In this document: positions 54,646 through 62,210 of the stretch, one piece after another
Layout: the number at the start of each line of letters is the position of its first letter
Position numbering within the stretch: position 1 is the first letter of the stretch
Source of the DNA: a virus
DNA: 64,000 bases
IMG/VR virus record: IMGVR_UViG_3300005537_000002
Location: 96,001-160,000 of that record
Reading direction: 5' to 3' (one strand)
Notes under the pieces: model-generated
What the model was told of the DNA's origin: nothing
The model's input: the letters and a program-made list of their open reading frames with translations, nothing else
Database searches by the model: none
Translations under genes and position numbers: made by a program

Positions 54646-54969
54646 ATGCCACCACTTGACGTTGCCCAAACGTTCCCCGTAGAAGGCAGCAAGGTCTGTA
54701 GACCTTATGGAGCACCTAGACGCCTGCTATACCGACGTACAGATCTTGGACCTGAGTACGTGATAGCGGGAGTGCAGTTTAGCACAGTTGACATTGTGCT
54801 CATGCTATCCCGGTATAGCGGACGTTGTCACTGTTGTGGAACCGAGTTTAGTGTAGGCGACCCTATCGCTTACGTCCCGAAGGAGGATGGAGTTCGTGAT
54901 AGAGGCAGAGCGTATTGTGTAGACATGCATTGCTGTACAAGGCAGAAAGGGTACGAACATGAGTGCTAG
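54646..54969 (+). CDS. zinc-binding protein
   Basis: YSGRCHCCG.F..GD.IAYVP...RGRAYC shared with the N-terminus of 11665; start moved to ATG 54646. Confidence 0.8.
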   Translation: MPPLDVAQTFPVEGSKVCRPYGAPRRLLYRRTDLGPEYVIAGVQFSTVDIVLMLSRYSGRCHCCGTEFSVGDPIAYVPKEDGVRDRGRAYCVDMHCCTRQKGYEHEC

Positions 54970-56073: not shown

Positions 56074-56181
56074 CCGACAGTAGACATGAGTATGTATACT
56101 GTCGAAGCTAGTTAGGTAGAACGCAGACTCTAGCAAGTTCGTGATAGCATAGTAGAGTGCATACCTCTCTATACTTGCGTA

Positions 56182-56218
56182 GAACGGTCGAGTACGACAT
56201 GTACTCGACCGTTTGTGT
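56182..56218 (+). terminator. intrinsic terminator
   Basis: AACGGTCGAGTAC-GACAT-GTACTCGACCGTT then TGTGTT. Confidence 0.75.
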
Positions 56219-56247
56219 TGGTCAGATCGCACGGTAGAACGTGATAG

Positions 56248-56422
56248 CCGTAGACTGTTGGAGGTTGCATGGCCGTAGTCCCGTAGACCGAACGGATGCG
56301 TGTTGCCCGTAGTCCGTTCCCGGTTGGGGGTGGCCGGTCGTACGTACGTGACGGTCAGGTCGGTAAGGGGGTCACCGGGGACGCCCGTAGGCAGTAACGG
56401 CCGTAGACGAACTGGCCCGTAG
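56248..56422 (+). repeat. seven copies of CCGTAG
   Basis: At 56248, 56273, 56281, 56307, 56385, 56401 and 56417. Confidence 0.85.
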
Positions 56423-56476
56423 GACTTTCCAAGGGGGCCTTGTCCATGGGGGTAAGGGGGTGTTTAGCCCAGGGGG
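56326..56476 (+). other. G5-tract cluster, putative G-quadruplex
   Basis: GGGGG at 56326, 56367, 56433, 56448, 56456 and 56472. Confidence 0.7.
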
Positions 56477-56640
56477 TCAAATTTCACCCTTCACAAACTA
56501 AAAATTCACACCGCCGCCCCCACTAAATCCCACCTTCACAAAAATAAACTTCAGGTTTCACAACCCTAAAACTTTACCTTCGCCAACCACAAATTTACAC
56601 TCAGTCAACTCAAATTTTACCAACCTAAAACTTTTATCGC
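56477..56640 (+). repeat. G-poor A/C-rich block with short repeats
   Basis: TTCAC x5, CCTAAAACTTT at 56565 and 56624, several AAATTT tracts. Confidence 0.8.
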
Positions 56641-56865
56641 TTGTTGCCTGGTTAGGTCGCTGTTTTGTGGCTTATAAGGAACTGCTTCCAGTGAACACGT
56701 TCACTAGTGGCTGTACTGCGGGCCAGCTTCCTGGCAGAAGGCCAGCTTACGCTAGCATTCAGGCGTCGTAGCTCGTTACGGAGAGGGTAGTAACGAAACG
56801 TTAGCGCTAGCCCACGAACTTCTACGAAGTGTTAGCAAATTGGGCAAAACTGTAACGTATTTTCC

Positions 56866-56894
56866 TTGACATCCGTGTATTGGCATGGTATACT
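56866..56894 (+). promoter_or_regulatory. consensus sigma70 promoter with extended -10
   Basis: TTGACA-N17-TATACT, with TG at 56886-87. Confidence 0.9.
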
Positions 56895-56977: not shown

Positions 56978-57478
56978 ATGGCTAGCTTAAACATCACTGC
57001 ACAAAATGTTGACTCACAAGCACGCGACAAAGCGTTAAAGCTCGCGCAACAGTTGAACGTCACACTACACGGCTTTCCAACAGGGAAGGCACCTATGCTG
57101 GCAGTCATTGAGCGTGCTGGAGAAAAGCAGTGTGATGTGTACTACTCTGAGAGCCAATCACCACAAGGCATGTGTCACATCGCCGCAAGGTCAACGGGCA
57201 AGGGACCGTCAAGCAGCAACGCAAACGCAAACGGCCCATTCAACGCCCGTGAAGTGTCGGAGCAAGTAGCTTTCCTGTTCACACGACACTATATGAACTT
57301 GCGCGTCGGAACGCCAGGACACATTACTAACCCACAAGAGACGGTAGCCAATGCCGATGGTACGGTTACGTTGAGACTGCACAACGGTCAAGCCTTTACG
57401 ATCTCTGTCACTGCTGTTAAGCCTGTTACTGTCACTGAGGTTAGCCCGCTTCTTGCCAAGACTGCCAACGCTAAGTAA
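56978..57478 (+). CDS. hypothetical protein
   Basis: SD AAAGGAG; first gene after the consensus promoter. Confidence 0.85.
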   Translation: MASLNITAQNVDSQARDKALKLAQQLNVTLHGFPTGKAPMLAVIERAGEKQCDVYYSESQSPQGMCHIAARSTGKGPSSSNANANGPFNAREVSEQVAFLFTRHYMNLRVGTPGHITNPQETVANADGTVTLRLHNGQAFTISVTAVKPVTVTEVSPLLAKTANAK

Positions 57479-57492
57479 CTCACCTGAGACAG

Positions 57493-57508
57493 TGTTTCAC
57501 ATGAAACA
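57493..57508. promoter_or_regulatory. parS-like site 1 (inside a 32-bp palindrome, 57485-57516)
   Basis: TGTTTCACATGAAACA, 15/16 match to the parS consensus TGTTTCACGTGAAACA. Confidence 0.7.
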
Positions 57509-57540
57509 CTGTCTCATACTTCAAAGAAGGAGATTTCACC

Positions 57541-57915
57541 ATGTCAAGGCTGTCTAAGCTCATGGCGCAAGAGGCATTGCTCTCTGACGACGTACTGTTG
57601 ACTTCGCTCGTTGCGCTTGCCGACCTATGTATGCCTATGCCTATCGCAAAGCTTACCGACGTGCAGCAGAAAAGACTGCTCAAGATTGGCTGTACCTTTG
57701 ACTTGACCGTACAGTTGACACCGTACAAGGTACACGCTCGTCTAGCGTTCGATAACTCTGAGTGCGCGTACACGCTGTATCGTTGCTCTCATCGTCAAGA
57801 GTGCAAGTTTGAACAGGTTGAACTAGCTTCAACGAGCTACCACTTGGCTGAACTGATACAGGACAACATCGATCTAGTACGACTCATGCACTTGACTGTA
57901 CTCACTATCCGCTAG
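57541..57915 (+). CDS. hypothetical protein
   Basis: SD AAGGAG. Confidence 0.85.
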   Translation: MSRLSKLMAQEALLSDDVLLTSLVALADLCMPMPIAKLTDVQQKRLLKIGCTFDLTVQLTPYKVHARLAFDNSECAYTLYRCSHRQECKFEQVELASTSYHLAELIQDNIDLVRLMHLTVLTIR

Positions 57916-57918
57916 TTA

Positions 57919-57934
57919 TGTTTCACATGAAACA
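57919..57934. promoter_or_regulatory. parS-like site 2
   Basis: Identical TGTTTCACATGAAACA, intergenic. Confidence 0.7.
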
Positions 57935-57964
57935 CCCAATACTTAGAAAGAAGGATCTACCATC

Positions 57965-58417
57965 GTGACTACTACAACCAACCAACCTGCTACCCGTTCA
58001 CTGATGTCAATCTTGCGCTCGTACGGCTACACGCGTGAGACAGCGTGTGACATCCCTACTGAGACGTTACGCGGTATAGTCGATGTACACATGTACCCAT
58101 GTGAGTACCTTGTAGAAATGGCTGATACGCCGTTTCCAGTTGTCGAGTCCCTTCTGTATATGGGCTATGCCTTACAGTGTACGATTGAGCGCTACATCGA
58201 CACGGTACACTGTGAGCGTATAGTCGCGCTTGACGGTCAGGTACACGTATTGGGAGTCGAACAGTCTCGACACTCCTTTACAGAGATAGTAGACCTTGCG
58301 TACAGCTTCCCTACACTGTCAGACCTTGCACTAGAGTACAGTACCGACCCCATAGTATGCGGTATCCTGATCGACTCAACCACTTATCCGTACAGTGAGG
58401 TGCAACCATGCGCATAG
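57965..58417 (+). CDS. hypothetical protein
   Basis: SD AAGGA, GTG start. Confidence 0.8.
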   Translation: MTTTTNQPATRSLMSILRSYGYTRETACDIPTETLRGIVDVHMYPCEYLVEMADTPFPVVESLLYMGYALQCTIERYIDTVHCERIVALDGQVHVLGVEQSRHSFTEIVDLAYSFPTLSDLALEYSTDPIVCGILIDSTTYPYSEVQPCA

Positions 58418-60577: not shown

Positions 60578-60580
60578 TCA

Positions 60581-60620
60581 TAGTATCAGTGGCTGTCCTA
60601 CTCCATAGCCACTGATACTA
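60581..60620 (+). terminator. hairpin, probable terminator
   Basis: 14-bp stem TAGTATCAGTGGCT/AGCCACTGATACTA right after the stop codon. Confidence 0.7.
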
Positions 60621-60660
60621 TAGTTTGAGAGTGTCCCTACTACTAAACGTCAAACGGTTA

Positions 60661-61822: not shown

Positions 61823-62210
61823 TACGATCGAAGATGCTAGTAACGTTCGATGGTGGAGCTGCTGTTTGCTGTCGAACGTTCAGTTCCAATACTGTGGAGT
61901 GGTAGTAGCAGTGGATGAAATAACGTCCTTCATCGTGGAGTTTGAGGTCACAGGCAATGCCTCCACGATGAAGGACGTCTAAACAATCAACTAGTTGTTC
62001 GTATTCCGCTTGGTAACCGTCCTCAGTGGTTTCGTCGTCTTCCATGAAACGAGTCCATACTACGCAGACTGCACCGGTTTGAGGATCAATGTACAGTTCG
62101 TAGCCCGAACTTAGTAACGGACGGTTATCATCAACTTCTGGACCGTATTTGCATCTTACTACACTACGCAAAGCTAAGTGTGCTTGTAGCGCAGTACGAG
62201 ATGCATACAT
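61797..62210 (-). CDS. hypothetical protein
   Basis: Convergent with the + block; GYEL...V.V.W...L...G motif. Confidence 0.8.
   Translation of the reverse strand: MYASRTALQAHLALRSVVRCKYGPEVDDNRPLLSSGYELYIDPQTGAVCVVWTRFMEDDETTEDGYQAEYEQLVDCLDVLHRGGIACDLKLHDEGRYFIHCYYHSTVLELNVRQQTAAPPSNVTSIFDRITRKLGNR

Follow-up and report, generated by a model that had tools for sequence, protein, structure and literature searches.

Two identical 16-mers in a large soil phage are probably functional parS sites of the host type, bound by host ParB and kept by selection in a phage that lacks a ParB of its own. The window, a stretch of 64,000 nucleotides, comprises bases 96001-160000 of a 177,637-bp virus record that has terminal repeats and is rated complete. 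Exact copies of TGTTTCACATGAAACA lie at 57493-57508 (parS-1) and 57919-57934 (parS-2). No third copy exists across the 177,637-bp genome, in which all other matches to the motif have three or more mismatches. Both copies match canonical parS, TGTTNCACGTGAAACA, at 15 of 16 positions, the sole change being a central G to A. Base composition predicts 0.0023 sites per genome at one mismatch or fewer from canonical parS, and none of 100 shuffled windows equalled the observed number of sites. A literature search for the exact 16-mer gave no paper.

Under the obvious plus-strand gene calls, both 16-mers are intergenic and occupy consecutive gaps of one operon. parS-1 lies between the TAA stop codon (57476-57478) of gene 1 (166 aa, 56978-57478, plus strand) and the ATG at 57541 that opens gene 2 (124 aa, 57541-57915, plus strand). 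parS-2 lies between the TAG (57913-57915) of gene 2 and the GTG at 57965 that opens gene 3 (150 aa, 57965-58417, plus strand). The next start codon is 30-32 nt downstream of each site, and shortly after each 16-mer comes a ribosome-binding site, AAGAAGGA, on the plus strand (57524-57531 for gene 2, 57948-57955 for gene 3). The first site is extended by 8 bp into a 32-bp palindrome at 57485-57516 (15-nt arms, 2-nt centre; GAGACAG-parS-CTGTCTC), while parS-2 has no flanking palindrome. Folded as RNA, the palindrome reaches −24.4 kcal/mol (z −3.95) and site 2 stays at the level of shuffled sequence (z −0.02), so that a significant hairpin is found in gap 1 only. The original prediction, which described two identical intergenic 16-mers at 57493 and 57919, one mismatch from the conserved chromosomal parS and the first of them inside a 32-bp palindrome, agrees with these coordinates and gene calls, and the whole-genome scan that it proposed recovered the two known copies and nothing else.

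The phage is tailed and siphovirus-like, with nearly all genes on one strand. Its structural genes encode a 1577-aa tape-measure protein, a portal and a protease-capsid fusion, and it also carries two family-A DNA polymerases, helicases, a QueC fusion and ten tRNA genes. Searches of the genome for the ParB_N (E up to 1) and AAA_31 (E up to 0.1) domains gave no match, and neither did tblastn of the phage against host ParA and ParB. The absence of parA and parB that had been noted for the window therefore extends to the complete 177,637-bp genome, and the pair of partition genes that a self-encoded ParABS cassette would have beside its sites is missing. No tyrosine integrase or serine recombinase was found in the genome either. 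The QueC fusion belongs to the 7-deazaguanine pathway, and no member of the TGT/DpdA family was found in the phage; a 7-deazaguanine modification in the major groove, if present, could weaken recognition by ParB, which is a caveat to ParB binding. Among 50,697 phage records there were no close DNA relatives. The terL relatives were fragments without parS, and the nearest large one (106 kb, 76% complete) has no parS-like site, which counts against the ParB reading.

The host is probably a member of the Ktedonobacteria (Chloroflexota), as judged from PolA similarity and at class level only. A search with the full-length phage PolA against one genome per species (185,579 species) returned 45 relatives, 43 of them from Ktedonobacteria or Chloroflexota MAGs and isolates at 43-51% identity, among them Ktedonosporobacter rubrisoli and Thermosporothrix hazakensis. 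Terminase relatives (28-38% identity) are present in 20 of 169 Ktedonobacteria genomes. A 20-kb stretch of the phage compared with DNA of the host class gave tRNA matches only and no CRISPR spacer. Cultured Ktedonobacteria are filamentous, Gram-positive spore formers (PMC12901349). Spore formation is thus a known trait of the candidate class, to which the phage is linked by PolA alone.

We then compared the phage sites with the parS of this class. Canonical parS occurs in 124 of the 169 Ktedonobacteria genomes and the exact phage variant in 41, with 90 copies, while the reversed sequence used as a control was absent from all 169 (0 copies). When the unpublished genomes G087, G126 and G134 are left out, the counts become 121 and 40 of 166 genomes, with 88 copies of the variant. 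Five class genomes scanned at one mismatch or fewer contain dense clusters of TGTTTCACGTGAAACA, and the exact phage variant sits within the same clusters (3 of 8 sites in G014, 2 of 4 in G013 and 2 of ~40 in T. hazakensis). Several genomes have the variant and no canonical site (four copies each in G093 and G094, two each in G095 and G176, seven in G151), and two have mainly the variant (six variant to one canonical site in G138, four to one in G150). Lineages that carry the CA variant only or mainly also include G104, G075 and G103. The host clusters comprise 4 to ~40 sites among housekeeping genes, ~0.3 Mb from parAB in G010 and G014; many host genomes have just 2-10 sites, and host parS positions are mostly intergenic. 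A host parS unlike the phage sequence had been named in advance as evidence against the idea. The idea withstood this check: the candidate class uses canonical parS and, in 41 of 169 genomes, the exact CA-centred variant as well, and the proposed host identification and parS comparison could be carried to class level.

The longer palindrome around parS-1 has counterparts in the host class as well. Palindromic flanks of at least 4 bp accompany 14% of 115 host sites, against 0.4% expected. The extended host palindromes are perfect and add 4-16 bp per side with arms that vary from site to site, which is the architecture of phage site 1. Such palindromes were seen in loci L201-L213 (for example at 8927 in L201, 7295 in L203, 3395 in L204 and 6025 in L206), and they are not obvious terminators because no U tract follows them. 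The chromosomal clusters of Ktedonobacteria therefore resemble the phage sites in the 16-mer itself, including the CA-centred variant, in the preference for intergenic positions and in the longer palindromes with variable arms. They differ in that host sites are clustered, whereas the phage carries only a pair of them and lacks a cognate gene.

Genomes of the class encode parA-parB, and the ParB has ParB_N, HTH_ParB and ParB_C domains. A switch of ParB specificity in the variant-only lineages was considered and rejected, as 11 ParB sequences compared by eye had no consistent change in the recognition helix. As the helix-turn-helix region does not differ consistently between variant-only and canonical-only lineages, the central transition seems to be tolerated by an ordinary ParB; it is the change expected from CpG deamination. 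Restriction avoidance as the source of the CA centre was also rejected, since neither CACGTG (25 observed, 32 expected) nor ACGT (1102 observed, 1068 expected) is avoided in the phage. The parB of K. rubrisoli (L224, 4080-4943) departs from the other ParBs of the class just past the helix-turn-helix and ends at 287 aa; this short gene in a complete genome may reflect a frameshift or a sequencing error.

Are the sites conserved in other phages? An exhaustive HMMER search with gene 2 yielded P0005 (45% identical, E 2.4e-16), the only homologue of that gene and the entry to a sole relative, L246/L250, which lies on 1.1-1.6-kb soil-metagenome contigs from a sample series that also contains terL fragments 66% identical to ours. 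The gene order of the relative is that of the phage operon, with homologues of genes 1, 2 and 3 at 49, 45 and 40% identity and an additional 130-aa gene between the homologues of genes 2 and 3. Each of its three assembled gaps contains canonical TGTTTCACGTGAAACA, a 16/16 match, 25-31 nt ahead of the start codon that follows. The scan of relatives for the 16-mer thus gave one related phage, in which parS is conserved in position with the canonical centre. When the five gaps of the two phages are aligned, the ribosome-binding site and 15 of 16 parS positions do not vary and the remainder of the gaps differs; the core differs only at its centre, which is CG in the relative but CA in the two sites of our phage. 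The gap 1 palindrome of the relative reads GCGCAG-parS-CTGCGC, and relative to the arms of the phage it has three compensatory changes that keep complementarity. As the aligned downstream flank is 64% identical, a 16/16 identity would arise by chance with P ~8e-4. Judged from these alignments, the parS sequence is held by purifying selection, and its core behaves as a protein-recognition sequence more than as a hairpin.

Positional conservation together with the compensatory arms rules out chance and neutral carry-over as we read it, and the idea that the resemblance is accidental or a neutral remnant of captured host DNA is highly improbable. It can draw on the composition of the operon, which is slightly off that of the rest of the window (GC 0.50-0.51, GC skew ~0). 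Against it stand the very low expected number of sites given above, their conserved positions next to proteins only 40-49% identical, and the flanking genes, which have no homologue in the 169 host-class genomes. A host origin of the operon was rejected on the same ground for gene 1.

The same gaps bear on a different explanation, in which RNA hairpins, or mobile intergenic cassettes of the T4 type that shuffle small genes by recombination, are what is conserved and the resemblance to parS is secondary. In its favour, the long hairpin of gap 1 is maintained through the three compensatory arm changes, the extra 130-aa gene of the relative is flanked by gaps that share a 21-nt parS-distal stretch, and the assemblies of the relative break at repeats. 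We nevertheless regard it as improbable, because the 16-mer core shows identity only and no compensatory change, the fold of site 2 is that of shuffled sequence, neither a U-tract terminator nor a conserved promoter is present, and the identity with the host centromere would be left unexplained. A T4-type promoter-stem-loop cassette was rejected: the gaps have no promoter-like site, the ATACTT common to both phage gaps is not kept in the relative, and a significant hairpin occurs in gap 1 only. An internal promoter in the gaps was likewise rejected, with no sigma-70-like site present and a spacing from the 16-mer to ATACTT that differs by 3 nt between the gaps. A metagenome scan for a parS-ATACTT cassette returned only an unrelated low-GC sequence, L245 (metagenome contig Ga0129306_1006016, GC 32%), which has two CA-variant 16-mers 70 bp apart. 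In the relative, the assemblies (L246-L254) break at or beside its three parS repeats, and the stretch shared by gaps 2 and 3 is identical over 21 nt, GAAAGAAGGAAAACCGCTATG, which hints at recent duplication or recombination between those gaps.

A protein of the phage itself, for example one of the conserved orphans of the operon, might instead bind the 16-mers, which would then be ordinary operators or serve a competitor of ParB. Genes 1-3 have been conserved along with the 16-mers, and none of them belongs to a known fold or family: searches of all three against Pfam and PHROG gave no family, a word-based protein search returned the phage itself only, and ESM Atlas gave no lead for genes 1 and 2. 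Gene 3 had no homologue among 5.8 billion proteins beyond the syntenic gene of the relative, an IMG/VR search with gene 1, gene 2 and the 343-aa downstream gene found no relatives, and a scan of genome contigs with a Ubl partner protein gave no lead. No helix-turn-helix or ParB-like domain was detected, and a match to the host centromere of 16/16 in the relative and 15/16 here would have to be coincidence or mimicry. In addition, the single difference between the 16-mers of the two phages falls at a position that commonly varies among host sites too. We therefore consider a phage-encoded binder very unlikely, if a little less so than an RNA or cassette origin. The orphan proteins might also be ParB-interacting factors. 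Tandem paralogy of genes 1-3 as the cause of the repeated site was rejected, as the three have no mutual similarity. One weak similarity was seen outside the phages: P0006 (L249, GCA_002269645.1; 844 aa) has eight repeats weakly like residues 12-76 of gene 2 (E 4e-7). Its locus does not translate directly and may be a eukaryotic gene with introns.

Because the candidate host class has these sites and ParAB, the phage has no ParB and the sites are conserved in the relative, binding by host ParB is the best explanation of the 16-mers. After entry of the phage DNA, host ParB dimers would nucleate on the two parS sites and close as CTP clamps. ParB would then spread over the neighbouring kilobases, including the early promoter and the adjacent repeat region, and the ParB-parS complex could couple a quiescent phage genome to the ParA/SMC segregation machinery of the host. 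In a filamentous, sporulating host, the phage genome would in this way be carried into spores or daughter compartments. By analogy with phi29, such hitch-hiking on host segregation is our leading candidate for the role of the sites, one that we put forward tentatively. Three considerations count against the ParB reading. Transcription of the unit that contains the sites is strong, and RNA polymerase would tend to dislodge ParB there; a free DNA end in the adjacent region, if present, could let ParB clamps slide off; and segregation as the only role does not account for the regular placement of the sites, 25-32 nt before each start codon.

That placement leads to a second role for bound host ParB, in which it would gate or silence the first operon depending on the state of the host, and the sites would act as a sensor and not as a centromere. 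The predicted promoter of the parS operon is of sigma-70 type (56866-56894, plus strand; TTGACA-17-TATACT with TG upstream of the −10, 11 of 12 matches) and is the best sigma-70 match within 55.5-64 kb. From this promoter and the layout it is plausible that the parS operon is the first to be expressed. A regulatory role would fit the presence of parS in every assembled gap of both phages, 25-32 nt before a start codon and beside a Shine-Dalgarno sequence. It would also fit the distance of 0.6-1.05 kb from the sites back to the one strong sigma-70 promoter upstream of them, within reach of spreading ParB. ParB-family clamps are known as regulators, as in KorB of RK2 and in SopB of N15, which affects late genes. 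On the other hand, chromosomal ParB alone is a weak repressor, the gaps may be the sole places where a 16-bp palindrome fits without damage to coding, and host parS is itself mostly intergenic. On balance we think gating of the operon an unlikely primary role.

Bound host ParB could also serve to harm or re-use the host, either through titration of ParB that disturbs segregation or division, or through recruitment of SMC that organises the 177-kb genome. With only 2-10 sites in many hosts, a few hundred phage copies would outnumber them, and the sites are in the earliest operon. Yet the dose is low, at two sites per 177 kb compared with five per 19 kb in phi29, and the phage has no other sign of targeting segregation, so we judge this role somewhat less likely still than operon control.

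The closest precedent for the hitch-hiking role is phi29. In PMC2731898, in a passage that cites Meijer et al. 2005, five parS sites of phi29 are described as bound by host Spo0J and as helping, in spore entrapment, to segregate the infecting genome into the prespore. The phi29 genome (EU771092.1) contains four identical copies of TGTTTCACGTGGAACA, the B. subtilis form, and one degenerate site, with no ParB gene annotated. The present phage shares with it the combination of several identical host-type parS with no ParB and no integration genes, and its candidate host class forms spores as well. In contrast, phi29 is a 19-kb protein-primed podovirus of Bacillota whose sites are dispersed and mostly within genes, whereas ours is a 177-kb siphovirus-like phage, probably of Chloroflexota, whose two sites (three in the relative) occupy successive intergenic gaps of its first operon, one of them in a longer palindrome. 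The idea is less novel than first assumed, because by the account in that passage of PMC2731898 phi29 already does it. The hijacking of host parS by a phage without ParB is itself known, and what is new here is the host phylum, the type of phage and the arrangement of the sites.

Related arrangements are found among uncultured phages. At least 119 IMG/VR contigs contain the CA-variant 16-mer, compared with 13 for the reversed control, which is in line with a wider spread, and among the matches listed 15 of 119 loci have two or more parS-like sites. No ParB was found in five CA-variant contigs that were checked, four of them multi-site. L101 (11,968 bp, with inverted terminal repeats) and L119 are phi29-like genomes, both complete, that encode a protein-primed PolB, Gp16 ATPase, connector and Phi29 capsid. 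In each of them, parS-like sites lie in pairs ~200 bp from either end, with one more site in the centre; neither has a ParB, and the pairs include the CA variant. Phages of the L101 type are therefore like ours in lacking ParB and in having the same CA variant among their sites; they differ as small low-GC podoviruses with site pairs near the genome ends.

Phage-plasmids form a different group, in which P1 ParAB-parS, N15 SopAB with dispersed sopC, and mycobacteriophage parABS are self-encoded partition systems. These also place centromere-like repeats on a phage genome, and those of N15 are dispersed and influence expression as well. They use their own ParA/ParB-type proteins and their own site sequence, whereas the present phage encodes neither protein.

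To our knowledge, phage use of a host centromere has so far been shown only in the phi29 family. The sites described here would add a clear-cut case, kept by selection, from a large phage that is not related to phi29 and whose probable hosts, of another phylum, sporulate as well; if the reading is true, it would be the first case outside Bacillota. Host-type parS in an unrelated phage of a sporulating class suggests a convergent strategy that is more widespread than thought. In its broad form, this would make ParB hijack via parS arrays at the leading genome end a general, convergent strategy of phages of sporulating or mycelial bacteria, in which a non-integrating phage rides segregation into spores or hyphal compartments, or senses the state of its host from ParB occupancy and gates its first operon accordingly; we consider this generalisation possible but doubtful. 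A host-type parS may also serve as a sequence marker for assigning hosts to uncultured phages. As a by-product, the survey documents parS diversity in Ktedonobacteria, with lineages that have the CA variant only and sites embedded in longer palindromes.

The DNA around the operon has further repeats. Upstream of it, after a long run of plus-strand genes, lies a non-coding junction (56074-56865; 0.8-0.9 kb) with a terminator-like hairpin, seven CCGTAG-type repeats, G5 tracts and three 44-45-bp A/C-rich repeats. This junction is a candidate genome end, pac site or origin. A AACGTGATAGCGGTAGAC-like motif recurs ~30 nt upstream of start codons at 54757, 55608 and 56238 (also at 56140) and may be a phage-specific promoter or a processing signal. 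Downstream of the operon there are two perfect inverted repeats, one at 60580-60621 with 15-nt arms and a 12-nt spacer, the other at 61923-61978 with 18-nt arms and a 20-nt spacer.
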